Origin: Candidatus Binataceae bacterium | Lineage (GTDB): Bacteria; Desulfobacterota; Binatia; Binatales; Binataceae | Assembly: GCA_035308025.1 (NCBI GenBank) | Contig: DATGHL010000030.1 | Location: 52,946 to 116,945, forward strand | DNA length: 64,000 nucleotides | Reading direction: 5' to 3' | Shown here: piece after piece, positions 4,055-42,711 of the stretch | Numbering within the stretch: the stretch's first letter is position 1 | Layout: each line of letters starts with the position of its first letter | The notes under the pieces: model-generated | What the model was told of the DNA's origin: nothing | What the model saw: the letters and a program-made list of their open reading frames with translations, nothing else | Database searches by the model: none | Translations under genes and position numbers: made by a program

Positions 4055-4129
4055 TGGGCCCACCAGGATTTGAACCTGGGACCAGCCGGTTATGAGCCGG
4101 CAGCTCTGACCAGGCTGAGCTATGGGCCC
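4055..4129 (-). tRNA. tRNA with anticodon CAT (elongator Met, or Ile2 if lysidinylated)
   Basis: The reverse complement folds as a cloverleaf. Acceptor stem GGGCCCA/TGGGCCC; U8 A9; D-stem GCTC/GAGC. Anticodon stem GCCGG/CCGGC with loop CTCATAA. T-arm CCAGG-TTCAAAT-CCTGG; discriminator A. CCA is not encoded. The anticodon stem lacks the three consecutive G-C pairs of initiator tRNA. Confidence 0.8.
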
Positions 4130-16193: not shown

Positions 16194-16847
16194 TTGACCC
16201 CAACGGAAGAGGCTATGGGCAATGCCATTAGATCGAATGATGGGAGCTCGCGGCGGACGCGCCGCGAGGTGCTCAAAGCTGCGGCGGGGCTGTCGGCCGC
16301 ATTTGGTCTCGAGCTTATCCTAGGTGGCTGGACGCGCGCGGCCGTCGCCGCCGACCTCGCGAAAGTCAAGCTGATCGATTTTTCTGACGCCGGCGAGAAC
16401 CGCGGGCAGGTGTCACTGGACAAATTCGTCTTGAGCGACGCGCAATGGCGTCAGCGGCTGACGCCTGAGCAGTATGAGATCACGCGTGAGGCGGGGACCG
16501 AGCCGCCCTTCCACAACAAATACGACGAGTGGCACGAGGCCGGTATCTATCGCTGCATCGGTTGCCGCACGGCGCTCTTCAATTCGGCGGCAAAATTTGA
16601 TTCCGGCACCGGCTGGCCGAGTTTCTGGTCGCCGATTGCCCCTGAAAATATCGCCACGCGGAGCGATCATTCGTTCCTGATGGCCCGCACCGAGGTTCTC
16701 TGCCGCCGCTGCGACAGCCATCTGGGCCACGTCTTCGACGACGGTCCGCCGCCAACCGGACTGCGCTACTGCATGAACTCGGCGGCGCTGACTTTCGTGC
16801 CCTTCGCGCGTCCCGCGCTTGCGCGAGCCTCGGGAGCAACCGGATGA
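16194..16847 (+). CDS. msrB: Peptide-methionine (R)-S-oxide reductase MsrB with a Tat signal peptide
   Basis: SelR domain with two CxxC pairs (CIGC...CRRC) and the RYCMNSAAL motif. The N-terminus carries a twin-arginine motif (TRREVLK), a hydrophobic stretch and an AxA site. Confidence 0.85.
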
Positions 16848-17497
16848 AAGTGCGCGCGCCGCGCCGTGAGCAGCCGCTCGCGATTCGCGTCGCGCACTGG
16901 TGCAATGCGCTGTTTCTGGTCCTGATGGCCGGCAGCGGCCTGCAGATTTTCGCCGCCTATCCCTCGCTGGGCCCGCAGGGCGATGAATATTCGTGGTATC
17001 CCTTTCAGGACACGCCGCCGCCACACTGGCTGACCATCGGCCGATGGCTTGGAGGCGGCAGGCACTGGCATTTCGCGATCGCGTGGTTTTTCATCCTCAA
17101 CGGTCTGTTTTACCTCGGCTACTTTTTTCTGAGTGGCGAATGGCGGCGGCGGCTCTTCCTGCCGGGCCGCGATGTGGTCAATGCGCTCCGGCAATTCGGT
17201 TACTATCTACGATTGCGCAAAACTCCGCCGCCGCCGGATTTTTACAACGGCCTGCAGCGCCTCGCTTATACGTCGGTAATTCTCTTCGGGGCCGTGATGG
17301 TCGTCTCAGGTCTCGCGATCTACAAGCCGGTGCAATTGCACTTTCTGACGATGTTGTTCGGCGGCTACGACGGCGCGCGCGTCGTGCATCTCGCGGGTCT
17401 CTGTTTGTTTGCCCTGTTTGTCGTGACCCATCTGATCCTGGTCGCGAGCCATCCGCGTGAGATCGTCAAGATGTTCACGGGAGGCGAACGTGGCTAG
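16844..17497 (+). CDS. Membrane b-type cytochrome (cytochrome b561/hydrogenase cyt-b-like)
   Basis: 217 aa with about 4-5 TM helices and conserved His residues in the TM segments (RVAHW, GRHWHF, VTHLIL). Its start overlaps the msrB stop. Confidence 0.65.
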
Positions 17498-18182
17498 CCT
17501 GATTGCGCGCCGCAAGTTCCTCGCGGGCGCGGCCGCGCTAACGCTGCTGGCCGGATGCGAAAGCCGGCCGGCTAACGCGTTTCTCGAGCTGATGCGGGGA
17601 TGGAACGAAAAGGCCGAGGGCTGGATGTTCTCGCCGACGCGCCTGGCGCCGGAGCTGCCCGAGGACGACGAGACCGACGAAGAGGATTTCCCGAAATATT
17701 TCATCTCGTCCACGACGCCGATCGCGCCCGCGAACTGGACGCTCAAAATCGGCGGCCTTGTGCAGAATCCGATGATCCTGACACTCGCCCAGTTGCAGGC
17801 GCTGCCGCCGACCGCGATGCGCGTGCGGCATCACTGCGTCGAAGGTTGGTCAGCGGTAGCCGCGTGGCGTGGCGTGCGATTGAACGAGATTGCGCGGCTC
17901 GCGGAAGTCGATCCGCGAGTGCGCTATGTCGAGTTCCGCTCCTTCGACAAGAACTACTATTCGGGATGGGATCTCGCCAGCGCGATGCATCCGCAGACCC
18001 TGCTGGCCTACGGGATGAACGGTCACACGCTCGGTCCTGATCATGGCGCGCCACTGCGGCTATATTCGGCAGTCAAGCTCGGCTACAAGATGGTCAAGTA
18101 CTTGACCGAAGTTAATTTCCTTCCGCACAAGGTAGGCGGCTACTGGGAAGATCAGGGTTACGAGTGGTTCGGCGGCGTCTGA
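17457..18182 (+). CDS. Molybdopterin-dependent oxidoreductase (sulfite oxidase/YedY-MsrP family), Tat-exported
   Basis: Tat motif RRKFLAGAAALTL and the Moco-binding core (HHCVEGWS...YGMNG...PLRL). Confidence 0.8.
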   Translation: MRSSRCSREANVASLIARRKFLAGAAALTLLAGCESRPANAFLELMRGWNEKAEGWMFSPTRLAPELPEDDETDEEDFPKYFISSTTPIAPANWTLKIGGLVQNPMILTLAQLQALPPTAMRVRHHCVEGWSAVAAWRGVRLNEIARLAEVDPRVRYVEFRSFDKNYYSGWDLASAMHPQTLLAYGMNGHTLGPDHGAPLRLYSAVKLGYKMVKYLTEVNFLPHKVGGYWEDQGYEWFGGV

Positions 18183-18267
18183 AGGCGGCACCATAGCCAA
18201 GCGCGCCCTGGAAACCCGGGGGAAAGCAGACGACGGTTCGATTACCCAACCGTGCTTTTATCGTAAA

Positions 18268-18310
18268 CAGCCGCTGCGACGTTCAGGCTAGGTGAACGTC
18301 GGAGCGGCTG
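18268..18310 (+). terminator. 17-bp stem-loop downstream of the Mo-oxidoreductase gene
   Basis: cagccgctgcgacgttc / gaacgtcggagcggctg with a single mismatch. The following T-tract is weak. Confidence 0.3.
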
Positions 18311-18497
18311 ACTCAGGGGTTTGGTGATATTTTCCGCGCCGGTCGCTAAGAAATGGTGCGAAGGAGATGACGTTGTTGGCAAACAGATCATAGGTCGAAA
18401 GTAGGGTGTTGGAGCCCGCTCCGATCGTTGCCATCCCCGGTCCACCTGCGCCGCACAAGTCGAGAAAGACATCACAACGCAGTTCCTGCGGATTTTT

Positions 18498-19037
18498 TTA
18501 AATCGCTCGCTGGTTTGTTACGGATTGTCGTTTCGTTCGAAGATCCCAGATCCTTGAAAATCCATTGAAGAACACAAGCAGTCTGCCTTTTATTTGATGG
18601 GTGAAGATGATTTTTAGAATTGCCCAAGCGAGATAAGAAAGCCAACTAGCAATCGCCACGGCCATTATAGCCAAGAACAGTTTGTCCTCGATTGTGAACC
18701 ATGGACCGGCGCGAACTGGACCCGCTGCCTCGTAATGGAAGACAGGAGCCATCCATTCGGCTTTGATTTCGAGAAGACCTATGATTGGCCCGTATACGAA
18801 AAAAATAATTATTCCGGTGAACAAAAATAAATAGAATGCCGACAAAAACAAATTAATCGCAAACAGCCCTGCTAAAGAAAGCGTGCTTCTAGTTGCCTTC
18901 TCAAGTCGCTGTACATTCTCTCCTAGTCGCTTCCGATACTCCCAGTCGAAATCGGCGCTAGTCATCTCCAACTGGAAGGTTTCTGCCGCGAGCGCGGATG
19001 CTACATGGCTTCTCCATCGCTTAAGTATCCCACTCAC
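18498..19037 (-). CDS. Hypothetical membrane protein in a low-GC islet
   Basis: 179 aa with 3-4 predicted TM helices. Gene GC is roughly 42% against a roughly 67% background. Confidence 0.5.
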   Translation of the reverse strand: MSGILKRWRSHVASALAAETFQLEMTSADFDWEYRKRLGENVQRLEKATRSTLSLAGLFAINLFLSAFYLFLFTGIIIFFVYGPIIGLLEIKAEWMAPVFHYEAAGPVRAGPWFTIEDKLFLAIMAVAIASWLSYLAWAILKIIFTHQIKGRLLVFFNGFSRIWDLRTKRQSVTNQRAI

Positions 19038-19415
19038 AAGTCGCCCGAAGATAATGCCGCGGTTTTACTTTGAGGGGTCGCCGAATTCATTGCGTGAGCG
19101 AGGTTTCCATAGGTTTCAATTCCGTTCCAGACCGTCGAGCTAAATCCCCAACTGCGCCTGAACAAACTGTTCCAGCGCTTTGACCCCCCCGGTCGGTTTG
19201 ATGCGGCAATTCTCCTCTCGATTGCCTTTTACAACAAGTGCTTTTTCTGTCTGAATAGCCCGAGAAATTGAGAGCGCTGCGTCATTGAAAGCAACGCGTT
19301 ACCGGAGTCGCGGCGCGCGGCCCGAGGACGCGCAGGAGGGTAATTCGGCGCCTGATCCTGCAAGAGCGCGACAACGGAGCGCGAACCTCCTAGCGGTGAA
19401 AAAAGCGGTGAGAAA

Positions 19416-20603
19416 ATGGATTTCAAATTCAGCGAAGCTGACGAGGCCTTTCGCCTGGAACTCCGCAACTGGCTCGAGCACAACGTGCCGCGCGACTGGC
19501 GCGACGACGGCGAACTGAGCGACCCGGAAACCAAGACCGAATTTGAGCGGCGCCGCGCGTGGCATCGGAAACTCTACGACGCCGGCTGGATGTGTATCCA
19601 TTGGCCGAAGGAATATGGCGGCCGCGGCGCAACCTTCCTGCAGCAGATCATCTACAACCAGGAGCTCGATCGCGCCAAGGCCCCGCCGGTCGTCAATTTT
19701 CAGGGCATCGCGCGGGTCGGTCCCACCCTGATGCAGTGGGGCACGCCCGAGCAGAAGCAACGCTACATCCCGCGCATTCCCTGCGCCGAGGAGATTTGGT
19801 GCCAGGGACTTTCCGAGCCGAATCACGGCTCCGACCTCGCCGCGGTCGAGACCCGCGCCGTTGATGAGGGTGATCACTTCGTGGTCAACGGCGCGAAGGT
19901 CTGGACCTCGAACGCCCATCACGCAGATTTCTCGACGCTGCTCTGCCGCACCGATCCGACGCTGCCCAAGCACAAGGGACTCAGCTACCTGCTGGTGGAT
20001 ATGAAGAGCCCCGGGATCACGGTGCGCCCGCTGATTCAGATCACCGGCGAGCACGGCTTCAACCAGGTTTTCTATGAGGATGTGCATGTGCCCAAGGGGA
20101 ACCTGGTGGGGCAGAAAAATCAGGGTTGGATGGTCGCGATGACCAACATGATGTTCGAGCGCACGATCCACGGCGGCCGCACCGACATGATGGTCGAAGT
20201 GCGGCAGCTCGCCGATCTCGCCCGCACGATGCAGCGCAATGGCCGCCCGGCGTGGGAGGACGAATACGTCCGTCAGCGGATCGCGCGCTTCGCCACCGAG
20301 GCCGAGGGGCTCAAATATACCAGCTATCGCCAGCTCACGCGGCAAATTCGCGGCCTGCCGCCGGGTCCCGAGGGTTCGGTAATGAAGCTCGGGATTAGCG
20401 AGCTCAACCTGCGGATGCAGGCGTTCGCGATGGAACTGCTGGGACCTTACAGCCAGTTCGAGTATCGCGCGGAAGGCGCAGTCGATCGCGGCAAGTGGTC
20501 GCATCGGATGCTGGCGGCGCGGCGCGGGACGATCGCAGCCGGCTCGAACGAAATCCAGCACAACATTATCGGTGAGCGCGTGCTCGGCCTGCCGAAGGGC
20601 TGA
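19416..20603 (+). CDS. Acyl-CoA dehydrogenase family protein
   Basis: 395 aa with the ACAD N, M and C domains and a C-terminal [14 protein letters not shown] motif. Confidence 0.9.
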
Positions 20604-20620
20604 GCGGCGAGAGGACGGCG

Positions 20621-21406
20621 ATGAGCAAGTTCGAGGATTACGCCGGCAAATACGAATTCATCAAGATGGAGCGCGACGACGGTATCCTGCAGATGACCCT
20701 GCATAGTAAGGGCGGCGAGCTGCTATGGGGCGGGCGTCCGCATGAAGAGCTGTCGTATGCCTTCGGTGAAGTCGCGCGCGATCGTGAGAACCGCGTGGTG
20801 ATCGTCACCGGCAGCGGCGACAACTTTTGCGCCGACATCATCTGGGGCAAAGCGAGCGCCAAGGCCGGCCCGACCAAGGTGCGGCCGCTCTCGATGGACC
20901 ATACCCTCTCGGACGCCTACTACCTGATCATGAATCATCTCAATATCGCCGTGCCGATGATCGCCGCGGTAAACGGCCCGGCGCTGATTCATTCCGAGCT
21001 GGCGCTGCTGTGCGACATCGTGCTGGCGTCGGAGAACGCCGAGTTTCAGGACTTGCCCCATTTTCCCATGGGCCTCGTGCCGGGCGACGGCGTCCACGCG
21101 GTCTATCCGCTGCTGCTCGGGCTTAATCGCGGACGCTATTTTCTGTTGACCGGTCAGAAAATCCCGGCGCTCGAGGCGCGCGAGATCGGGCTCGTCGCCG
21201 AAGTGCTGCCACGCGATCAATTATTGCCGCGCGCGTGGGAACTCGCGCGCAAAATCGCCAGCAAGCCGCCCCTCACGCTACGCTACGCGCGCGCTTTGCT
21301 GAGCCGGCAACTGAAACGCCTGATGATCGACAATCTCGAGCTGGGACTGGCGCTCGAGGGTCTAGGCTCGGCGGATTACTGGCCCGCGCCTAACCTCAAG
21401 AAATAG
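20621..21406 (+). CDS. Enoyl-CoA hydratase/isomerase (crotonase) family protein
   Basis: 261 aa crotonase fold. First of a tandem paralog pair. Confidence 0.85.
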
Positions 21407-21442
21407 CCGCCGCGCAAGCGGCCAGCGTCGCGAGAAATTCAT

Positions 21443-22207
21443 ATGAGCAAATTCGACGATTACGCGAACAAGTTCGAGCACATCCGGATGGAGCGCCGCG
21501 ACGGCATCCTGCAATTTACGCTGCATCGTAATGGCGGCTCGGTGATTTGGGATTTCGCGGCGCACAGCGACACTGCGCACGCACTCGGCGAAGTCGCGCG
21601 CGATCGCGAGAATCGTGCGGTGATCCTCACCGGCGCGGGCGACGACTTTATCGCTGATCACGAATTCGGCGACGCCAACAAGATTCCCGCGGCGTCCTGG
21701 GACCAGGTCATCACCGACGCCAAGTACCTGATCATGAACCACCTCGACATCGAGGTCCCGATGATCGCCGCGGTCAATGGTCCGGCGCTAATCCATGCGG
21801 AACTCGCGCTGATGTGTGACATCGTGCTGGCCGCAGAGACTGCGGTGTTTCAGGATTTGCCGCACTTCACCAGCGGACTGGTGCCGGGCGACGGCGTCCA
21901 CGTGATCTTTCCGCTCTTGTTGGGCTTCAATCGCGGCCGCTATTTCCTGTTGACGGGCGAGAAGATTCCCGCGCGCGAGGCCAAAACTTTGGGCATGGTC
22001 GGCGAGGTGCTGCCGCGCGAGCAACTGCTACCGCGCGCCTGGGAGCTGGCCCGCCAGATCATCGCGAAGCCGCCGCTGACCGTGCGCTACGCCCGCCAGT
22101 TGCTCACCCGCGAACTCAAACGCGCGATGATCGACAACCTCGGTCTGGGACTGGCGCTCGAGGGTTTAGCCGCCGGCGAATTTTTCATCAGCGACCCGAA
22201 GAAGTAG
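21443..22207 (+). CDS. Enoyl-CoA hydratase/isomerase (crotonase) family protein, tandem paralog
   Basis: 254 aa, collinear with and about 55-60% identical to the preceding crotonase by eye. Confidence 0.85.
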
Positions 22208-22523
22208 CGGTGGGTACGATCGGCGAGCTCGCGCTGGGTGGCCCAAGCCAGGCGGGATTGACGCGCAGCTCGAGCAGGTTCTGATCGCTCACCGTGATCA
22301 GACCGCGTGTCGGGCGGTCGAGATCGATAATCACGAGAATCACCAGGGAAATCACCGTCACCGTGATCGTGATGGCGCGGAGGTCTCGACGGCCGGCGAA
22401 GCCGTAGCCATAGCCGACCAGCCCCATCGTTAGAATGGCGACCAGAAACAGCAGACCATGGCCGCTCTGCAGTGCAACAATCAGATACTCGTCGCGCTGA
22501 TACAGCAGCTCGGACGGCATCAC
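22188..22523 (-). CDS. Possible small membrane protein
   Basis: 111-aa ORF 10 bp downstream of the GST gene, with hydrophobic segments. Weak support. Confidence 0.3.
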
Positions 22524-22532
22524 GGACGCGGG

Positions 22533-23225
22533 CTACGCGTGTTTCTCGAACTGCTTCTTGCCGTACAGAATCGAGCGTTCCTCGTCAGTCAAAGGCGCCT
22601 GCGGGATGTCCGCCATCACGGCGAGGCCGCGCTTGACCGCGGGCCGCCCGCCGAGCGCGGCGAGCCAGCGCCGCAGATGAGGCAGCGGCTCGAGTTGTTC
22701 CGGCTCGCGCTCTGCGATCCGCACCCACGGATAGTTCGCGATGTCGGCGATTGAGTAGTCGCCGGCGAGATATTCGTTGGCGGCGAGCTGCTTGTCCATC
22801 ACGCCGAATAGCCGGCGTGACTCGTTGGTATAGCGTTCGATCGCGTACGGGATCTTCTCGGGCGCTGCGTTTTTGAAATGGCCCGCCTGCCCCATCATCG
22901 GGCCGATCCCCGCCATCTGGAACATCAGCCACTGCACGACGTTGTACCGCGCGCGCATCTCGGTGGGCATCAGCTTGCCGGTCTTCTCGGCCAGATAAAG
23001 CAGGATCGCGCCAGACTCGAACAGCGCCAGCGGCTTCTTGCCGGGCCCGTCGTGATCAACGATCGCCGGCATCCGGTTGTTCGGGCTGATCGCGAGAAAG
23101 CTCGGCTCGAACTGTTCGCCCTTGCGAATGTTGATTGGGACGATCTTGTATTCGAGGCCGATCTCTTCGAGAAAAATTGTAATTTTATGTCCGTTCGGAG
23201 TTGGCCAGTAATAGACGTCGATCAT
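22533..23225 (-). CDS. Glutathione S-transferase (nu/YfcG-YghU-like)
   Basis: N-terminal thioredoxin-like GST domain (YYWPTPNGHK...ESGAILLYL) and a C-terminal helical domain. Confidence 0.85.
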   Translation of the reverse strand: MIDVYYWPTPNGHKITIFLEEIGLEYKIVPINIRKGEQFEPSFLAISPNNRMPAIVDHDGPGKKPLALFESGAILLYLAEKTGKLMPTEMRARYNVVQWLMFQMAGIGPMMGQAGHFKNAAPEKIPYAIERYTNESRRLFGVMDKQLAANEYLAGDYSIADIANYPWVRIAEREPEQLEPLPHLRRWLAALGGRPAVKRGLAVMADIPQAPLTDEERSILYGKKQFEKHA

Positions 23226-23354
23226 AACTCACCTCGACCAATGATATCGGCCAGCTTCGCCTTACACAGCTTTGCGGTCAAGGGTACGCAACTGGAAAAC
23301 GCGCCAACGGAGCGGTTAAGAAGACGCGCCGGTATTATCGAAAGTCGCCGCACG

Positions 23355-23777
23355 CTAGGCTTTTGCTATGGCGTCAAGCGCGGCCTGCGCGCACTCGATA
23401 TCCTGATCGACGCTGCCGCCACTGACGCCGATTCCGCCCACGACGACATCATCGATCCGGATCGGCAAGCCGCCGCCGAAAGTCACGATGCGCGGAATGT
23501 GCGGCACGCCGGCCAGCAGCGACGGGTTGTCCTTGATCCGATTGAAGAAGTCCTGCGAGGGCGCACCCAGCAACGCGGTATAGGCCTTGTTTTGCGCGAC
23601 CTCGATACTAATCAATGGTGCGCCGTCCATTCTATGGAAGGCTTTGAGCAGACCGCTTTCGTCGAGAATCGCGACGATCTGTGGAACGCCGATCGCCTTG
23701 GCCTTGGCTGCGGCCGCCTCGACCATGCGAGCGGCAAGCTCGGCCGTGATACTGCGTTTGACGTAAGTCTTTTCCAT
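23355..23777 (-). CDS. GlcG/HbpS-like heme-binding protein (DUF336)
   Basis: 140 aa. DUF336 motifs, including the GGGLPI segment. Confidence 0.78.
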   Translation of the reverse strand: MEKTYVKRSITAELAARMVEAAAAKAKAIGVPQIVAILDESGLLKAFHRMDGAPLISIEVAQNKAYTALLGAPSQDFFNRIKDNPSLLAGVPHIPRIVTFGGGLPIRIDDVVVGGIGVSGGSVDQDIECAQAALDAIAKA

Positions 23778-23961
23778 TTTGACACTCCTCTTTCCGCGGT
23801 AAGCGCATGTCCCCGCGCGCCGGCCTTTCGATTAGCACATCAGGCGAGCCGCGCTCTATCCCGCAGTCATGGTTGCTTCTATTGCGATCGCGGAGGCATC
23901 TGGCGGATCATCGCCTCGAACTTGGCCTCGGATTTGATCTCGACCCTGGAGGGCTATCACG

Positions 23962-25425
23962 ATGCGAGTCGCGATCGGCGGATTTCTGGCCGCAGTAAAT
24001 ACGTTTGCCACGCAGCGCATGGGGCTCGAGCGTTTCCAACGCGCGATGATGCGCGAAGACGCGGTGCTCAAGCTCGCGCGCGGTGAGAGCGCGTTCGGCG
24101 GTTTTGCGCAGACCGCGCGCCAGCAGAACTGGGAGGTCATCCCGCTGCCGTTTGTCTTTCCGGGGATCGCCGGAAAGATCACCGACGAAGCCTACGCCTG
24201 GACGCGCGAGGAGTTCGTCAAGTCGATTCGCGCGGCCGGGCGGTTCGACGGCGTCTTTCTCCAGATGCACGGCACGGCCGCGAGCGACAGTCTCGAGGAT
24301 TGCGAGGGGGACCTGCTGGAAACGGTGCGCGGCGCGCTTGGCGCGCAGACGCCAATCATTGTTTCGCTCGACGGTCACGCCAACGTCACGCCGAAAATGG
24401 CCGCGCAGGCGAGCATGCTGATCGGCGTAAAGACCAACCCGCACTACGACTTCGCCGCGACCGGACGGCTCGCGGCCCGCGTGATGGCCGGGATGTTCGA
24501 CCGCTCGCTGTCACCGGCGAGTGCGTGGGCGCAGCCCGCGATGGCGCCGGCGCTGCAGAAGCTCTACATCGCCCCGGGCTGGCCGATGGAGCATCTGATG
24601 CGCCTGGCGCGCAACCGTCAGGCGAGCGACCCGCAAGTGCTCGACATATCGCTCCTCTGCGGCTTCTTCGTCTCCGAACGGCGCGAAACCGGAATCAGCG
24701 TGGTCGTGACCTGCGATCGCGAACCGGCGCTCGCGCGCGAGATCGCCGAAGAGCTGAGCCAGGCCTGCTTCAACGCTCGCGGCGCCTTTCACACCGATAT
24801 GGTTGGGGTGGCGGACGCCGTCAGCGAAGCGATCGCGACCGATGAAAATCCGGTCATTCTCGGCGACCTCGCCGACAGTGGCGGCGCGGGAACTCCGGGC
24901 GACGGCACGGCGATCCTCGCCGAACTGCTCAAGCAAAACGCACGCGGCGCCGTGATCGGCAATCTCGCCGATCCTGCGGCGGTGCGGGCGGCGACCGCGG
25001 CTGGCGTCGGCAAGAATATAACGCTCTCTGTCGGCGGCAAGGTTGATCAGTTTCACGGCGCGCCGGTGCAGATCACCGGGCGCGTGCGCACCCTCCACGA
25101 TGGCGTCTTCACCGCCAGCACCCAGTTCAATGCCGGCACGGTTCATCGCGGACCGACGGCGGTGATCGATTGCGGCGGCGTCGAGGTGATTCTGACCTCG
25201 CGCCCGGTGCTGGTGTTCGAGCCGAATCACTTCAGGAGTCTGGGGATCGAGCCTACGGCGCGCAAAATGCTGGTCTGCAAGGCCGAGATGCAGCATCGCG
25301 CGGGCTTCGCCGGCGCGGCGCGGACCTTTATCGACGTCGACGCGCCCGGCCTCGCGACGCAGGCGCCTTCGCGACTGCCCTACAGCAAAATCCGCCGCCC
25401 GGTCTTCCCGCTCGACAATATTTGA
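23962..25425 (+). CDS. M81 family metallopeptidase (MlrC/microcystinase-like; DUF1485+DUF1446)
   Basis: 487 aa. The N-domain (AIGGF..NTF...DGV.L.MHG) and C-domain (GD.ADSGGAG) match the MlrC architecture. Confidence 0.78.
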   Translation: MRVAIGGFLAAVNTFATQRMGLERFQRAMMREDAVLKLARGESAFGGFAQTARQQNWEVIPLPFVFPGIAGKITDEAYAWTREEFVKSIRAAGRFDGVFLQMHGTAASDSLEDCEGDLLETVRGALGAQTPIIVSLDGHANVTPKMAAQASMLIGVKTNPHYDFAATGRLAARVMAGMFDRSLSPASAWAQPAMAPALQKLYIAPGWPMEHLMRLARNRQASDPQVLDISLLCGFFVSERRETGISVVVTCDREPALAREIAEELSQACFNARGAFHTDMVGVADAVSEAIATDENPVILGDLADSGGAGTPGDGTAILAELLKQNARGAVIGNLADPAAVRAATAAGVGKNITLSVGGKVDQFHGAPVQITGRVRTLHDGVFTASTQFNAGTVHRGPTAVIDCGGVEVILTSRPVLVFEPNHFRSLGIEPTARKMLVCKAEMQHRAGFAGAARTFIDVDAPGLATQAPSRLPYSKIRRPVFPLDNI

Positions 25426-25498
25426 CGCCTGTCGCGGATAACTTAGAATCAAGGACCTCAGGGATTTGTTGATTGCACAGACGCGATGAGGTGATGGC

Positions 25499-25729
25499 GT
25501 GCCGCAGTTCCAGTACACCGCAGTTTTCGAGCCGGCTCCGGAGGGCGGCTTCACCGTAACCGTGCCGGCTCTTGCAGGGCTTGTGACCGAAGGCGATACG
25601 CTCGAGGAAGCTCGCGAGATGGTGAAGGACGCGATTCGCGGGTATCTGGAAAGCCTGCTCGCGCATGGCGAGGAGATTCCGATTGAACCTGGCCTCGCGA
25701 GCGTCGAGCGCGTCGCGGTAACGATTTAG
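25499..25729 (+). CDS. hicB: HicB-like antitoxin (UPF0150 domain only)
   Basis: 76 aa. RNase-H-like HicB N-domain (YTAVFEPAPEGGFTVTVPALAGLVTEGDTLEEA). No DNA-binding extension. Confidence 0.78.
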   Translation: MPQFQYTAVFEPAPEGGFTVTVPALAGLVTEGDTLEEAREMVKDAIRGYLESLLAHGEEIPIEPGLASVERVAVTI

Positions 25730-25734
25730 ACCAA

Positions 25735-25959
25735 ATGCCCCGCTTGCCCGTCTGTACGTCCGTCGATCTTATCCGGGCGCTGCAACGGGCAGGTTTTTTT
25801 CTGGATCACAGCACGGGTTCGCATCGGTTTTTTCGGCACCCTTCCCGCCGGGGCCTTGTGACTGTTCCGTTCCATCGCAAAGATCTCAAGCGCGGGACCC
25901 TCAAAAGCATCCTCGATCAGGCCGGGCTCTCCGTCACGGAGTTCATCGAGCTCCTATGA
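25735..25959 (+). CDS. hicA: HicA mRNA interferase toxin
   Basis: 74 aa. YcfA/HicA fold motifs (SGSH.FF.HP...GLVTVP.H.KDL..GTLKSIL.QAGL). Confidence 0.8.
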   Translation: MPRLPVCTSVDLIRALQRAGFFLDHSTGSHRFFRHPSRRGLVTVPFHRKDLKRGTLKSILDQAGLSVTEFIELL

Positions 25960-26720
25960 ACTGCTCCAGCGACGTGGAGAAAGAAAGAATTGCGAAATTC
26001 CTGGCGCGGGCGGGCGTGGCCTCGCGCCGCGACGCCGAGCGGATGATCGAAGCGGGCCGCGTCGCACTCAATGGCGCCATCGTCAGCCACCCAGCGACGA
26101 TGGTCGGCGCGGGCGACAAGGTCGCCGTCGATGGCAAAGCGATCGCGGCCCAGGAACCGACTCGGCTCTGGCGCTACTACAAACCGGCCGGATTGGTGAC
26201 GACCGCGCGCGACCCCGAAGGCCGCCCGACGGTCTTCGCCAAACTACCGCAAGGCCTGCCGCGCGTGGTCTCTGTCGGCCGCCTCGACATCAATACGGAA
26301 GGGCTCCTGCTCCTCACGAATGACGGCGGGCTGGCGCGATACCTCGAGCATCCGGCGCAACTCTTTCCACGCACCTACCGGATTCGCGCGCACGGCCACG
26401 CGGAGACGTCAGTTGTCGCGCGATTGGCCCGCGGCCTCACGGTCGACGGCATCTACTATCGTCCGATTCAGGCGACGCTCGATCGCAATCAGGGCGGCAA
26501 CTGCTGGATGACGATGACACTAAACGAGGGCAAAAATCGCGAGATCAAGACTATCTTGGAACACCTCGGGCTCCAAGTCGCGCGTCTGATCCGGATTGGC
26601 TATGGTCCCTTCGAGCTCGGCCCGCTGCCGCCCAACGAGGTTGAGGAGGTGGCATCGGAGCGCCTCGCCAAGCTGCTCCCCGGCCATTTCGCGTCACGGG
26701 AATCAGAGACTCGCCAATAA
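25956..26720 (+). CDS. rRNA pseudouridine synthase (RsuA/RluB family)
   Basis: S4 domain followed by the catalytic VGRLD.NTEGLLLLTNDG motif. The ATGA overlaps the hicA stop. Confidence 0.85.
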   Translation: MNCSSDVEKERIAKFLARAGVASRRDAERMIEAGRVALNGAIVSHPATMVGAGDKVAVDGKAIAAQEPTRLWRYYKPAGLVTTARDPEGRPTVFAKLPQGLPRVVSVGRLDINTEGLLLLTNDGGLARYLEHPAQLFPRTYRIRAHGHAETSVVARLARGLTVDGIYYRPIQATLDRNQGGNCWMTMTLNEGKNREIKTILEHLGLQVARLIRIGYGPFELGPLPPNEVEEVASERLAKLLPGHFASRESETRQ

Positions 26721-26722
26721 GT

Positions 26723-27487
26723 TCACTGCGCCATGTAGCCGCCATCAACCGGCATCGGCAGACCGGTCACGTATGACGCGCGATCCGAGCAGAGCCAGGC
26801 CACCGCCTCGGCGACCTCCTCGGGCTGGCCGATGCGCTTCATCGGCTCTGAGCGGGCATAGCGCGCCTCCATATCGGGCCGCTTCTCAAATGCGCTCATC
26901 AGCAACGGCGTGTAGATCGGCGCCGGACAGACAGCATTGATCCGGATTCCGTGACGGGCATATTCAAGCGCCGCCGCCTTGGTCAGTCCGGCCACGCCGT
27001 GCTTGGCGGCGGTATAGGCAGGCACGCGTATCGCGCCGGTCAGACCCATAATCGACGAAGTGTTGACGATGACGCCGCTGCCCTGCTTGAGCATCTGGGC
27101 GATCTCCGCCCTCATGCAGAGCCACACTCCGGTCAGATTCGTCGTGATGACGCGATTCCATTCGGTGAGCGTGTACTCGTGCGTCAGCCGCCCGGCACCG
27201 CCGATGCCGGCGTTGTTAAAGGCGCAATCGAGCCGGCCATAGCTGGAGACCGCGCTGGCGATCAGGGCTTCGACGTCGGCCTCGCTTGCGACGTCAGCCT
27301 TGACGAAGATGCCCTCGGCGCCGGTCTGCTGCTTGATCATTGCTAGCGTTTCGAGACCGCCCGCTTCGACCACGTCGGCGAGGACAAGCCGGGCACCCTC
27401 GCGTGCGAAAATCCGCGCGGTCGCGCGGCCAATACCGGAGCCGGCGCCGGTGATCAGCGCGACTTTACCCTCAAGCATTGCAGTCAT
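26723..27487 (-). CDS. SDR family oxidoreductase
   Basis: TGAGSGIGRA Rossmann motif, the NAG motif and a YxxxK catalytic pair. Confidence 0.85.
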   Translation of the reverse strand: MTAMLEGKVALITGAGSGIGRATARIFAREGARLVLADVVEAGGLETLAMIKQQTGAEGIFVKADVASEADVEALIASAVSSYGRLDCAFNNAGIGGAGRLTHEYTLTEWNRVITTNLTGVWLCMRAEIAQMLKQGSGVIVNTSSIMGLTGAIRVPAYTAAKHGVAGLTKAAALEYARHGIRINAVCPAPIYTPLLMSAFEKRPDMEARYARSEPMKRIGQPEEVAEAVAWLCSDRASYVTGLPMPVDGGYMAQ

Positions 27488-27945
27488 CTGGCTTTCTCCC
27501 TTAAAGCACGACGCTCGCCGCATATCATCCCACTAGGGGGAATAGATCAATGTCCGAGGGCTTCGCAGGAGAGCGGCCCAAAATTTCGGCGGCGGGAATT
27601 GTTCTTGTTCAGGGCGATTCGGCTCTCCCCCGCCAGCAGCGGTGCAGCGAGGCGTTTGTAGCGGTTTGGTGAAAGCCTAGGCCCTCAACGCTGTCGCGAG
27701 CCTCCGGAAATGCGACATTATTCATTCTCGAGTAAACGTCCCGATGGCTCACCAAGCGCCTCCAATTGCTTCCGACAAGATAAATATTCTTTACGACTGC
27801 TCGAATCCGGTCTAAACTGCTAAAAACATCTAGTTAATGAAAAACAGGTGAATTTAGATGCTGAAAGAAGCTTCTACCTGCTTTGAAGGAATTTATTATA
27901 CATGATGTGCTAGATCATCTTTATCAATGTGTTAACACGTAAGAC

Positions 27946-29595
27946 ATGCTGTACGAACCGAATAACAGCCTCGCAAACTATGATTACATCATAGTTGGGG
28001 CCGGTTCGGCCGGCTGCGTGCTCGCGAACCGCCTGTCGTCCGACCCGGACGTGCGTGTGCTGCTAGTCGAGGCTGGGCGCTCTGATCGCAATCCGTTGAT
28101 TCATATTCCGGCGGGCGCGCTGCCGATGAAGCTCTATGGGTTGAATTCCTGGACTTACTTCACCGAGCCGCAACAGCATCTGAAGAGTCGCAAGTTGCAT
28201 TGGCCGCGTGGCAAAGTATTGGGCGGTTCGAGCGCGATCAATGCGATGGTATATATGCGCGGGAATGCCAGCGATTACGATCGTTGGCGGAATCTCGGCA
28301 ACGTCGGTTGGTCGTATAATGACGTGCTGCCCTACTTCATCCGCTCCGAGGACTTTGCTGCCGGTGCCGACGAATACCATGGCACTGGCGGGCCGATTAA
28401 GGTGACGGTCAACGCTGCCATAAATCCGATCACAGAGGCCTTCCTGAACGCTGCGCAGGCGGCAGGCTATCCGTATAACCCTGACGTCAACGGCGGCACG
28501 CAAGAGGGCTTCGGCCCGCTCTACTCGACGATCTGCGCGGACGGGCGGCGTCAAAGCACGGCGGTTGCCTACCTGCGTCCGGCGCTGGGCCGCACCAATT
28601 TGAGCGTCGTCACGAAAGCGCGGACGCGGCGGCTTCTGTTCGAGGGGACGCGAGCGGTCGGGCTGGAGTATCTGACTGGGCGGCGGACCCATGAGGTGCG
28701 GGCGGCGCGCGAAGTGATCCTTTGCGCGGGCGCGATCAACTCGCCGCAAATCCTGATGCTCTCCGGGGTCGGTGATGCCGCACAATTGCGCCGCTTGGGG
28801 ATCGCGCCCGTGATCGATCTCAAGGGCGTCGGGCAAAATCTGCAGGATCATCTGGCGGTTGACCTGCAGGTGAGCTGTCCGTTGCCGGTCTCGCTGTATC
28901 GGGAGTTGGCGCCCCATCGGATGGCGTGGTCGCTCGTGCGCTATCTGATATACGGGACCGGGCCGCTGGCGAGCGTAGGGCTCGAAGCCTCGGGGTTTAT
29001 CAAGACGCAGGCAGGAGAATGCGCGGCGGATACCCAGTATCATTTTAGCTCGGGGCTGGTTTATCGCGGGGTCAGCACCGGTCCGGTGCGCCGCCACGGT
29101 TTCTATGTCCGCAACTGCCAGTGCCGGCCGCGCAGCCGCGGTTATATTGCGCTGCGCTCGGCCGATCCATTGGCCGATCCGATTATCGAACCCAACTATC
29201 TGGAAGCCGAGTCCGACCGCCGCTTGCTGCGCGAGGGCTTCAAGGTCAGCCGCGAGATCGTCGCGCAGGCCGCGATGAGCGCCTTTCGTGGCGCCGAACT
29301 ATGGCCCGGACCCGAGGTGCGCAGCGACGCGCAAATCGACGACTGGATCGGCGACGCGGGCGTGACGTCGTTTCATCCGGCGGGCACCTGCAAGATGGGT
29401 CATGACGAGCTCGCGGTGGTTGACGATCAATTGCGCGTGCATGGCCTCGAGGGGTTGCGCGTCGTGGATACCTCGATCATGCCCCGGCTGGTGAGCGGCA
29501 ATACGAATATGCCGACCATCATGATCGCCGAGAAAGCCGCGGATCTGATCCGCGGCCGCGCCGCGGTTCTGTTGGCCTCGGCGGCCAACCAATAG
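27946..29595 (+). CDS. GMC family oxidoreductase (choline dehydrogenase-like)
   Basis: 549 aa. N-terminal FAD motif YDYIIVGAGSAGCVLANRLS and the C-terminal GMC signature with the His pair. Confidence 0.88.
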   Translation: MLYEPNNSLANYDYIIVGAGSAGCVLANRLSSDPDVRVLLVEAGRSDRNPLIHIPAGALPMKLYGLNSWTYFTEPQQHLKSRKLHWPRGKVLGGSSAINAMVYMRGNASDYDRWRNLGNVGWSYNDVLPYFIRSEDFAAGADEYHGTGGPIKVTVNAAINPITEAFLNAAQAAGYPYNPDVNGGTQEGFGPLYSTICADGRRQSTAVAYLRPALGRTNLSVVTKARTRRLLFEGTRAVGLEYLTGRRTHEVRAAREVILCAGAINSPQILMLSGVGDAAQLRRLGIAPVIDLKGVGQNLQDHLAVDLQVSCPLPVSLYRELAPHRMAWSLVRYLIYGTGPLASVGLEASGFIKTQAGECAADTQYHFSSGLVYRGVSTGPVRRHGFYVRNCQCRPRSRGYIALRSADPLADPIIEPNYLEAESDRRLLREGFKVSREIVAQAAMSAFRGAELWPGPEVRSDAQIDDWIGDAGVTSFHPAGTCKMGHDELAVVDDQLRVHGLEGLRVVDTSIMPRLVSGNTNMPTIMIAEKAADLIRGRAAVLLASAANQ

Positions 29596-40401: not shown

Positions 40402-40633
40402 TCATTACTCAGTCACTACTGGTCTTAAAGTCTTCGTAATTTGCGGCTATAACTATTTACCAATACTCAGCCGGAAGCTATATTTTTTCGACGGGAATAG
40501 CAGATTCAACAATCTTAGCTTATCACGAGCATCTATTTGATTGAATTAGGGCGTGGGTACGATAAATGCTGCGCCAGCCTTCAGCGATTATCTAATAAAA
40601 TAGAGGTTCGTCGCCAAGGAGGAGTTCTTCAGT

Positions 40634-41491
40634 ATGTATAAAACCCAATTACTTCGCTGCCTGATCCTCGGATCATTTTTTGTCATCAGTGGCGCGATGC
40701 TCGCGCGCTCGGCCTCGGCTCAGAGCAGCCTCGATCCGGGGCTGGCATTCGCCGCGGTCTCAGATTCGCAGGTGAAGTTGGACAAGAATGCTTCCATCGG
40801 GGGCGCCACCGGTGCGCTCGGCGACCTGATTCTGGGCGAGAGCGCGAGCGTCAGCGGCAACGGCACCTCTCTCGGTAACAAGATCAAGCTTTCCAGGCTC
40901 GCCGTCGTCAGCGGCATCTGTGAGACGACCGGAGGCAAAGTAACGCTTGGCAAAAACGCGACGTGCACCGGTGGTGTTGATACTGCCGGAATCAATCCCG
41001 CGATTGTCCCATTACAAACCTTCTCCACCAGCGGAGCGAAGGCCTGTCCGCCTGGTGGCGTCAGCGAAGGAGCGTTGACTCTCGACAGAAACGGCGCCGC
41101 CACGCTGACCGCGGTGAGCGGTTTCAACGAGTTTGATTACACGAACATCACGCTGAAAAAGAATGCTTTTCTAACCGTTTCCGGCCCCGCGGATGCGTTA
41201 GTGGTAATCAAGGATTCAGGCTCGCTGACTTTGGACAAAGGCGCGGCGATAGCAGTAGGTTCCGGCGGCTTAACGCCGTCGAACCTTCTCATTCTGGTGA
41301 ACACGGCGAAATCCTCCGCCAATAGCATCGTCAGCGGGTCTCTGGTTTCCGCAGGCGTCTGCAATCTCAAGGGTAACTCGTTCATCAACGGCCAGCTAGT
41401 TTGTGGGGGCAAAGTGACACTTGGCGCCAAGGGGAACGTGAGCGGTGGCAAGTTAAATGAGCAAGTGGCGACGGATGTTACCTGCCCATAA
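40634..41491 (+). CDS. Secreted Gly/Ser/Thr-rich beta-solenoid-like protein (hypothetical)
   Basis: Signal peptide, strong SD (aaggagg), and repetitive GxxxLG..A.VSG segments. It is preceded by a 230-bp AT-rich region. Confidence 0.55.
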   Translation: MYKTQLLRCLILGSFFVISGAMLARSASAQSSLDPGLAFAAVSDSQVKLDKNASIGGATGALGDLILGESASVSGNGTSLGNKIKLSRLAVVSGICETTGGKVTLGKNATCTGGVDTAGINPAIVPLQTFSTSGAKACPPGGVSEGALTLDRNGAATLTAVSGFNEFDYTNITLKKNAFLTVSGPADALVVIKDSGSLTLDKGAAIAVGSGGLTPSNLLILVNTAKSSANSIVSGSLVSAGVCNLKGNSFINGQLVCGGKVTLGAKGNVSGGKLNEQVATDVTCP

Positions 41492-41529: not shown

Positions 41530-42711
41530 ATGGACTTCAACTACAGCGCCGAGGATGAAACTTTCCGAGCCGAGTTTCGCGCCTGGCTCGCAGTCAACCG
41601 GGAATATGCGACGCCGGCGCGCGAGCCGCTGGCCGACGAACTCGAGGGCGACTGGGACGCGCGCGTAAGCTGGCATCGCCGGCTCCATCAGGGCGGCTGG
41701 ATGGGAATCCATTGGCCGCGGGAATACGGCGGACGCGGCGCGACTCTCTTGCAAAATGTCATTTACCAACAGGAGCTGGAGCGAGCCGGCGCGGCGATGC
41801 CCTTCACCGGCTTCGGCATCTCACTGCTTGGACCGACCCTGATTCACTGGGGCACCGACGAGCAGAAACGCCGTCATCTGCCGAAAATCCTCGGCGGCGA
41901 GGAATTCTGGTGCCAAGGTTACTCGGAACCCAACTCGGGCTCTGACTTGGCGTCGCTGCAAACCCGCGCGGTCGAGGACGGCGATTATTTCGTGGTCAAC
42001 GGCGCAAAAATCTGGACCTCGGCGGCACAGCACGCCGATTGGATTTTTCTGCTCGTCCGCACCGATCCGGCCGCGCCCAAGCACAAGGGGATAAGCTATC
42101 TGCTGGTCGATATGAAGACACCCGGCATCGTCGTGCGGCCACTCGTGCAGATGACCGGAGCGCGCGGTTTCAACCAGGTCTTTTTCGAAGATGTGCGCGT
42201 GCCGCGCAAGAACCTCGTGGGCGAAAAAAATCAGGGATGGCAGGTGGCCATCACCACTCTGATGTTCGAGCGATCGATGGGCCATGATCGCGGCCTGCTG
42301 CAACAGATTCGCGAACTCGCGACGCTCGCGCAGGGGATTCCGCGCAACGGCGCGTCGGCGTGGGACGACGCCGAGGTGCGCCAGCGCCTCGCGAAACTCG
42401 AAGCCGAGGGCGAGGCGATCAAGTACACGGGCTTCAGGCAGTTGACGCGCCAGCTCAAGGGACTGCCGCCGGGCGCGGAGAGCTCGATGCTCAAGTTGTG
42501 CGGGACCGAGTTGGCGTTGAAAATCGCGCTATTCGCGATGGAGTTGCTGGGTCCGTATAGCCAGCTCGAGCCGAACTCCGCCCATGCGCTTGATGCGGGC
42601 AAATGGTCGCAGCGGATGCTCGCCGCGCGCGGCCCGACAATCTATACCGGGACCAACCAGATTCAGCGCAATATCATCGGCGAACGCGTTCTCGGCCTGC
42701 CCAAAGGTTAA
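41530..42711 (+). CDS. Acyl-CoA dehydrogenase family protein (paralog of 19416-20603)
   Basis: 393 aa, collinear with and about 65% identical by eye to the first ACAD. Confidence 0.9.
   Translation: MDFNYSAEDETFRAEFRAWLAVNREYATPAREPLADELEGDWDARVSWHRRLHQGGWMGIHWPREYGGRGATLLQNVIYQQELERAGAAMPFTGFGISLLGPTLIHWGTDEQKRRHLPKILGGEEFWCQGYSEPNSGSDLASLQTRAVEDGDYFVVNGAKIWTSAAQHADWIFLLVRTDPAAPKHKGISYLLVDMKTPGIVVRPLVQMTGARGFNQVFFEDVRVPRKNLVGEKNQGWQVAITTLMFERSMGHDRGLLQQIRELATLAQGIPRNGASAWDDAEVRQRLAKLEAEGEAIKYTGFRQLTRQLKGLPPGAESSMLKLCGTELALKIALFAMELLGPYSQLEPNSAHALDAGKWSQRMLAARGPTIYTGTNQIQRNIIGERVLGLPKG

Follow-up and report, generated by a model that had tools for sequence, protein, structure and literature searches.

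The 1233-nucleotide (nt) gap between a Mo-oxidoreductase gene and an acyl-CoA dehydrogenase (ACAD) gene in a metagenome-assembled genome (MAG) of Candidatus Binataceae is a real compositional anomaly that holds a strict ORFan at a rearrangement junction, as is usual for the flexible part of a bacterial genome. The ORFan, a minus-strand open reading frame (ORF) of 179 amino acids (aa), hereafter referred to as ORF179, is probably a genuine gene or was one until recently; the likeliest reading is an unremarkable orphan gene confined to its lineage, and a toxin or defence role is without evidence. From its composition we infer a foreign origin, and the reading that we favour, with a confidence close to evenly balanced, is that of a recently acquired orphan accessory gene, derived from an unsampled lower-GC source and encoding a small inner-membrane protein.

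The window analysed here is a 64-kb stretch of a short-read MAG contig. The gap, or islet (positions 18183 to 19415), extends from the stop codon of the Mo-oxidoreductase gene to the ATG of the ACAD gene. To its left lies a co-oriented operon encoding MsrB with a twin-arginine signal (16194–16847), cytochrome b561 (16844–17497) and an MsrP/YedY-like molybdopterin oxidoreductase (17457–18182; hereafter referred to as moco). To its right are the pimC-like ACAD (19416–20603) and two enoyl-CoA hydratases, followed by a GST gene on the opposite strand. An earlier, sequence-only reading of this DNA had placed the islet between housekeeping operons, which is roughly right, given the msrB/cytochrome b561/MsrP-like operon on one side and the cluster of ACAD and two enoyl-CoA hydratases on the other. 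The genome is compact, with 88% coding sequence and a median intergenic gap of 75 nt among the 44 gaps of the window. At 1233 nt, the islet is the longest of these gaps (the runner-up has 745 nt) and 16 times the median, and a gap of this length would thus be exceptional if it were empty.

The GC content of the whole gap is 51.7%, compared with a mean of 62.7–63% in the window and 61–66% in the flanking genes. The lowest 540-nt GC content in the window (0.457, starting at position 18441) lies here, about 4.8 s.d. from the mean (0.628, s.d. 0.035), and the lowest 300-nt segment has a GC content of 44%. At a resolution of 100 nt, low GC is limited to about 18480–19100, where two troughs of approximately 150 nt, at 18500–18650 (0.38–0.44) and 18750–18850 (0.34–0.36), are separated by DNA of approximately 0.55. 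ORF179 itself has a GC content of 46.1%, and the gap outside it has 55–57%, near the normal intergenic value of the genome (58.5%), indicating that the compositional islet is essentially ORF179 itself. The shift in GC is gradual at both edges of the gap. The dip reported by the sequence-only reading is therefore real, correctly located and the lowest in the window, but the 40–45% GC that it ascribed to the full 1.2 kb is reached only by ORF179 and the troughs, and its background of above 65% was overestimated.

The codon usage of ORF179 departs from that of its surroundings in the same direction. Among the 173 ORFs of at least 100 aa in the window, it is the only one with a GC content below 57%, and its third-position GC content (GC3) is 0.48, compared with 0.71–0.82 in native genes (at least 0.71 in 59 of 59 likely native genes). 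The native membrane protein cytochrome b has a GC3 of 0.75, and hydrophobicity alone thus fails to account for the low value of ORF179. Isoleucine is encoded by ATA at 5 of 17 positions (1% in native genes), arginine by CGA or AGA at 9 of 12 (7%) and leucine by CTT at 7 of 22 (3%). The GC content, GC3 and codon usage of ORF179 all lie outside the host distribution, as is characteristic of horizontally acquired DNA. Such strongly non-native codon usage, together with the normal GC3 of native membrane proteins, suggests that this DNA is either foreign or young.

We compared the islet with 160 related loci, 80 around moco orthologues in species-representative genomes and 80 around ACAD orthologues in metagenomes. 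Nothing like ORF179 is encoded in any of them; orthologues in conserved synteny, singled out by the sequence-only reading as the observation that would speak for an ancestral gene, were found neither at these loci nor elsewhere in the searches described below. The DNA homology to every related locus stops at the moco stop codon (18182) and restarts at the ACAD ATG (19416). In the nearest relatives, moco is 88% and 81% and ACAD at most 92% identical at the amino acid level, and their DNA is unalignable with the window outside the coding sequences. The absence of ORF179 from the 160 loci thus refers to sites that are themselves rearranged, next to flanking genes that share 81–91% of their amino acids in the nearest relatives. 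Because these relatives are distant and the junction is rearranged, neither an empty site nor a non-coding precursor is demonstrable.

The adjacency of moco and ACAD is not conserved among the relatives. An 8.1-kb block (19416–27565), comprising ACAD, two enoyl-CoA hydratases, GST, an HbpS-like protein, MlrC, a pseudouridine synthase and an SDR, aligns in blastn with the related locus L002 from position 20294 down to 11590 (74–78% identity). The block is collinear with L002 but inverted, and the islet thus represents the left breakpoint of an 8-kb inversion. At three further loci (L008, L095 and L097), moco and the ACAD orthologue again converge, and this gene order suggests that the arrangement in the window is the derived one. 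The homology to L002 ends at 27565, and the other breakpoint (27566–27945) is an AT-rich spacer upstream of a GMC oxidoreductase gene, with no substantial ORF; the GC content is 0.48 in the spacer at 27524–27945 and 0.34–0.39 in 27800–27999. The two breakpoints have no sequence in common. Furthermore, the gene upstream of the ACAD orthologue and its orientation vary between genomes (median gap, 126 nt), and one relative carries a DUF4238 gene and a 74-aa orphan at this position. Elsewhere along this conserved block, the junctions are occupied by PIN/RHH, HTH or HicB-type genes, which differ by genome. These variable neighbours indicate that the islet occupies a flexible block boundary.

ORF179 occupies positions 18498 to 19037 on the minus strand and is the single 179-aa ORF that had been described there. 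The longest version starts with GTG at 19037, and alternative starts are present at TTG 18971 and ATG 18965, so that the product comprises 155–179 residues depending on the start. The NCBI annotation calls ORF179 as a gene (157 aa, from TTG 18971), whereas the IMG gene caller left it uncalled on an identical JGI contig, where it called only a 48-aa ORF near the hairpin described below; this disagreement between two pipelines is in itself a lesson for annotation. The frame is open for 188 codons, and the other five frames carry 5–15 stop codons in the same 594 nt. A frame of this length was rare in shuffled sequences, with p = 0.0012 when blocks of 60 nt were shuffled to keep the local composition, and p = 0.014 (whole gap) and p = 0.001 (core) in mononucleotide shuffles. 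The open frame is thus longer than expected by chance, as in a coding gene. Three other properties of coding genes, namely periodicity, a ribosome-binding site and conservation, are not seen in ORF179. The codon-position periodicity was not significant (p = 0.09) when the simulated sequences were also required to be open, and after this control we dropped codon-position composition as a coding signature. The Shine–Dalgarno duplexes of the three starts (−1.6 to −2.9 kcal/mol) were no stronger than those of random sites (median −2.6 kcal/mol; native median, −6.0 kcal/mol), and ORF179 is without homologues.

A tenable, if rather unlikely, alternative is that the islet contains no gene and consists of AT-rich non-coding DNA that the inversion left or reshaped at the junction, such as a promoter, curved DNA or a decayed foreign remnant, in which ORF179 is a chance frame whose T-rich strand gives a membrane-like translation. 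The tendency of T-rich DNA to yield hydrophobic translations by default has been pointed out for yeast non-genic DNA (PMC7005711). Such an origin would accord with the absence of a Shine–Dalgarno signal, a promoter match and significant periodicity, with the omission of ORF179 by IMG and with the lack of any homologue among 15 billion proteins. Moreover, the GC3 of ORF179 varies from one protein segment to the next with the GC content of the DNA there, a behaviour expected of sequence that is not under selection. The deepest AT trough contains three A-rich 12-mers (18799–18853; repeat family D1) spaced at 22 and 21 nt, a phasing like that of bent DNA. The minus strand of these repeats encodes the Phe/Ile/Leu-rich first hydrophobic stretch of ORF179, where the 100-nt GC content is 0.34–0.36. 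AT-rich spacers with equally low troughs and no ORFs are also present at the other breakpoint (27524–27945) and at 40402–40719. However, a 188-codon open frame is rare at the local composition, given the p values above and the stop codons in the other five frames; a 1.2-kb non-coding gap would be at odds with the density of this genome; and the segregation of charges around the hydrophobic segments, described next, is protein-like. These observations argue for a gene.

The translation of ORF179 contains two hydrophobic stretches of membrane-spanning length (residues 52–94 and 119–145), in keeping with the membrane-protein character noticed by the sequence-only reading. They are accompanied by a charged amphipathic N-terminal region, a loop with a net charge of −2 and a C-terminal tail with a net charge of +6, a pattern that follows the positive-inside rule for a plausible topology in which both termini are predicted to lie in the cytoplasm. 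The protein would thus begin with a cytoplasmic amphipathic helix of approximately 50 residues, followed by a long hydrophobic segment or hairpin (residues 52–94), a short acidic external loop, a second membrane helix (residues 119–145) and a strongly basic cytoplasmic tail. An AlphaFold2 prediction, run without an alignment, is all-helical with long continuous helices (pLDDT 70, pTM 0.33) and is too weak for a fold comparison.

Database searches revealed that ORF179 is a strict ORFan, matching only itself among 15 billion proteins; the sole match, 'hypothetical protein VKS22_09390', is the GenBank record of ORF179 itself, located on a contig of 169 kb. Both a word-indexed search of 5.8 billion clusters and an exhaustive phmmer search of 1.84 billion representatives returned ORF179 alone. 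Neither ORF179 nor the two smaller ORFs in the gap have a match in Pfam, NCBIfam, PADLOC or PHROGs, in agreement with the earlier statement that the 179-aa ORF has no recognisable domain. ORF179 has no match among PDB sequences at E values of up to 10, and a tblastn search against 50,697 phage and 72,556 plasmid records found nothing at E values of up to 1. Scans with the back-translated ORF179 were likewise negative in IMG/VR viral contigs and in JGI metagenome contigs, although the latter is a weak null, as the same collection also missed the JGI contig of the window itself in a scan for ACAD.

This absolute ORFan status also bears on a second alternative, which we regard as improbable, namely that ORF179 was born de novo when T-rich intergenic DNA at this site, which the inversion may have created or exposed, gained a frame encoding transmembrane segments. 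The site is a newly formed junction, and the GC3 of ORF179 mirrors the local composition, with no codon adaptation. Furthermore, the segments encoding the soluble parts have GC contents of 0.53–0.60, similar to the intergenic value of 0.585, and only those encoding the transmembrane helices are AT-rich (0.36 for residues 53–94). There is a precedent in yeast, in which thymine-rich non-genic sequences tend to encode transmembrane domains (PMC7005711, PMC10063215) and emerging genes arising from such DNA give transmembrane proteins (PMC7005711). ORF179 resembles these yeast de novo membrane ORFs (PMC7005711) in its T-rich coding strand, which gives the transmembrane segments, in its unadapted codons and in its lack of any relative, but it differs from them in its bacterial host and in being known from sequence alone, with no non-coding ancestor found. 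A syntenic non-coding precursor is not demonstrable across relatives this divergent and a junction this rearranged, and the observations listed here would agree no less well with an ORFan of phage origin or with a spurious ORF.

On the reading that we favour, the islet is a species-level, lineage-specific piece of atypical DNA with a core of approximately 0.6 kb (roughly 18480–19100), lying in a gap of unusual length where a block prone to rearrangement ends. It may have come from a phage or another mobile element, as a moron-like cargo gene or a remnant of one, and its arrival may date from around the time of the local inversion. The 'recent horizontal acquisition' proposed by the sequence-only reading is thus upheld in part: the DNA is lineage-specific and foreign in GC3 and codon choice, but the searches turned up no donor, and neither an integrase nor an adjacent tRNA or flanking repeat marks the islet. 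The terminal inverted or direct repeats are not convincing, the flanking ones being 15 nt at 80% identity and not collinear. The only tRNA gene in the window lies at 4055–4129; a low-GC spot near 4 kb was considered as a tRNA-linked island and rejected, as it consists of this tRNA-Met gene and the 3′ end of dnaG.

Among known systems, the islet resembles the ORFan accessory genes of flexible genome regions, which include phage-derived morons. Like these, it is a single short low-GC gene with non-host codons and no homologues, located at a junction of variable gene content, with a divergent spacer of its own on one side and a hairpin downstream. Residence in a prophage is what defines a moron. 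By contrast, the surroundings of the islet contain neither a prophage nor an integrase or attachment site, no homologue was found in phages, and ORF179 is a candidate gene only. The islet shares with classical genomic islands its compositional deviation and its absence from relatives, but it is only approximately 0.6–1.2 kb long, with one ORF and no tRNA target, integrase, direct repeats or mobility genes; its flanking genes are metabolic, and it does not qualify as a classical genomic island or integrative element.

The sequence-only reading had further suggested that small orphan membrane proteins of this kind may be abortive-infection or toxin-like factors, a suggestion that found no support. 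We consider it very improbable that ORF179 acts on its own as a membrane effector of the abortive-infection, toxin or holin-like type, killing or arresting the cell by disturbing its membrane. The features in its favour are generic: a small helical membrane protein with a tail of net charge +6, a foreign composition and a flexible junction, in a block that carries toxin–antitoxin-type accessory genes elsewhere in relatives. No family among the PADLOC-DB defence models matched ORF179 at E values of up to 1, and it thus cannot be assigned to a known defence or abortive-infection family; in PHROGs, the lone entry was phrog_969 (E = 0.13), a family of unknown function, with no stretch passing the threshold. 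Holins are small proteins with one to four transmembrane segments and a charged C terminus, and their genes adjoin that of the endolysin in the phage lysis cassette. ORF179 is like holins and small abortive-infection effectors in being small and helical, with two or three membrane segments and a highly basic C-terminal tail, but it has no endolysin or other phage gene nearby and no match to a known family of either kind. Neither a sensor nor an antitoxin gene is present in the gap, there is no prophage or mobile-element context, and a product of 155–179 residues exceeds type I toxins and most holins. For ORF179 as an acquired orphan, a membrane-perturbing or accessory role is a guess.

If transcribed, ORF179 would be read divergently from ACAD, out of the 378-nt spacer between them (19038–19415; GC content, 0.553), in which the promoters of both genes presumably lie. 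The spacer ends in a tandem 12-nt duplication (19392–19415; family D10) that carries the ACAD ribosome-binding site, with a Shine–Dalgarno duplex energy of −6.0 kcal/mol. The promoter-like stretch that had been proposed to lead into ACAD was not borne out: a sigma-70 consensus scan of 17800–19800 found no site (1.1 expected by chance), and the region upstream of ACAD is not kept at the orthologous loci, the spacer being unalignable with the corresponding regions of L002 and L008. At its other end, the ORF179 transcript may terminate at or before a stable hairpin (18268–18310) that it would share with the convergent molybdoenzyme operon. This 17-bp hairpin, noted by the sequence-only reading at the downstream flank of the ORF, is indeed very stable: its 18-nt arms (18268–18285 and 18293–18310) are 94% complementary and enclose a 7-nt loop, and it folds with −33.4 and −33.9 kcal/mol on the two strands (z = −4.6 and −4.9), with 0 of 200 shuffles folding as well. 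Intrinsic (Rho-independent) terminators consist of a G+C-rich stem-loop followed directly by a U-tract. Directly after the hairpin, the minus strand has only TTT and the plus strand no run of T residues, and a terminator pattern scan did not call it; it is a candidate bidirectional terminator without a U-tract. A weak 5-bp stem with a run of seven T residues (18478–18500, plus strand), which abuts the ORF179 stop codon, does fit the terminator pattern, but it folds no better than shuffles (z = −0.4) and is therefore probably not meaningful. No RNA family in Rfam matched positions 17500–20000 at E values of up to 1, and in the window as a whole only the tRNA-Met gene reaches the gathering score.

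If expressed, ORF179 would add one more lineage-specific small membrane protein to an uncultured soil phylum, an entry in the catalogue and not a surprise. The islet may serve as a case for studying the origin of orphan genes at rearrangement junctions, and, were the de novo explanation to prove true, it would provide a bacterial counterpart of the route from thymine-rich sequences to transmembrane proteins described in yeast. More generally, when an orphan ORF of membrane-like character lies in an AT-rich trough of a high-GC genome, evidence of expression is due before a toxin or defence role is proposed.

Finally, the islet recurs in a separate assembly. A search with the Mo-oxidoreductase led, at 100% identity, to JGI contig Ga0209167_10000042 (159,443 nt; soil sample 3300027867), which differs from the window at a single position in 20.7 kb (99.995% identity). 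This mismatch lies outside the 1233-nt gap, across which the JGI assembly (locus L081) is identical, and this contig, from the same population, is the only sequence closer than the next relatives. An assembly chimera, in which a low-GC fragment of another organism was joined into the MAG contig, is thus unlikely to the point of being hardly credible: the source is a short-read MAG, and the contig of the nearest relative (L001) breaks 160 nt past the moco stop codon, but the same 1233 nt and flanks are present in the JGI contig (an incompletely independent witness, as the two assemblies may share reads), the GC content changes gradually at both edges towards flanks of normal intergenic composition, and the neighbourhood is found once more on a contig of 168,792 nt.

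An eight-gene, 8.1-kb block (window 19416–27565), which begins with the acyl-CoA dehydrogenase (ACAD) gene, lies in reversed orientation relative to L002 11590–20294, a locus from a related Binataceae genome, and AT-rich spacers mark the breakpoints at both of its ends. Three further relatives (L008, L095 and L097) likewise have their ACAD orthologue in convergent orientation to the MsrP/YedY-like molybdopterin oxidoreductase (moco) gene, and therefore the orientation found in the window is probably the derived one. At the second breakpoint, upstream of a GMC oxidoreductase gene, there is a very AT-rich stretch of some 250 nt (27700–27945; GC 0.34–0.47), which does not resemble in sequence the islet at the moco/ACAD junction (18183–19415). 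A further AT-rich non-coding stretch, in a genome with a GC content of 63%, is the 318-nt spacer at 40402–40719, which is flanked by convergent genes; its GC is 0.44 and drops to 0.37 in the lowest 100-nt interval.

The window also contains a paralogous second ACAD gene (approximately 41695–42711), which shares about 67% DNA identity with the ACAD gene of L002. An ACAD paralogue resembling this second copy is located directly downstream of the moco gene, in convergent orientation, in several relatives.

Directly before the ACAD start codon, a 12-mer is tandemly duplicated in perfect register (19392–19415; AGCGGTGAAAAA / AGCGGTGAGAAA), doubling the likely ribosome-binding site of the gene; this duplication is not present in L002 or L008. 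In L001, the closest species-level relative (81% amino acid identity in the moco protein), the contig stops 160 nt past the moco stop codon (L001 4153–4313), and thus its assembly breaks at the same junction as that occupied by the islet. The JGI 3300047160 contig encoding protein P0124, from a relative whose ACAD is 89% identical, carries genes for a DUF4238 protein and a 74-residue ORF without a Pfam family (1303–2418) upstream of the ACAD gene, and is a further case of accessory content varying at the ACAD upstream boundary.

Other junctions of the 19416–27565 block carry PIN/RHH or HTH genes in relatives. Within the block, a HicB-like antitoxin gene encoding 76 residues (25499–25729, plus strand), called by IMG on the matching JGI contig L081 (18010–18240), has no obvious HicA partner and falls within a segment of unequal length (window 25415–25973 versus L002 13161–14555). 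An ORF of 111 residues (22188–22523, minus strand), also called by IMG, lies between the second enoyl-CoA hydratase and GST genes; it has hydrophobic segments, a normal GC content and no Pfam match.

Upstream of the islet (16194–18182, plus strand), msrB directly precedes and overlaps the cytochrome b561 and MsrP-like molybdoenzyme gene pair. The encoded MsrB has a twin-arginine-type signal at its N terminus, which, together with the operon arrangement, would place both types of methionine-sulfoxide reductase in the periplasm from one operon. The linkage of msrB to this pair is also found in L001 and in Anaeromyxobacter loci, with msrB on the opposite strand in the latter.
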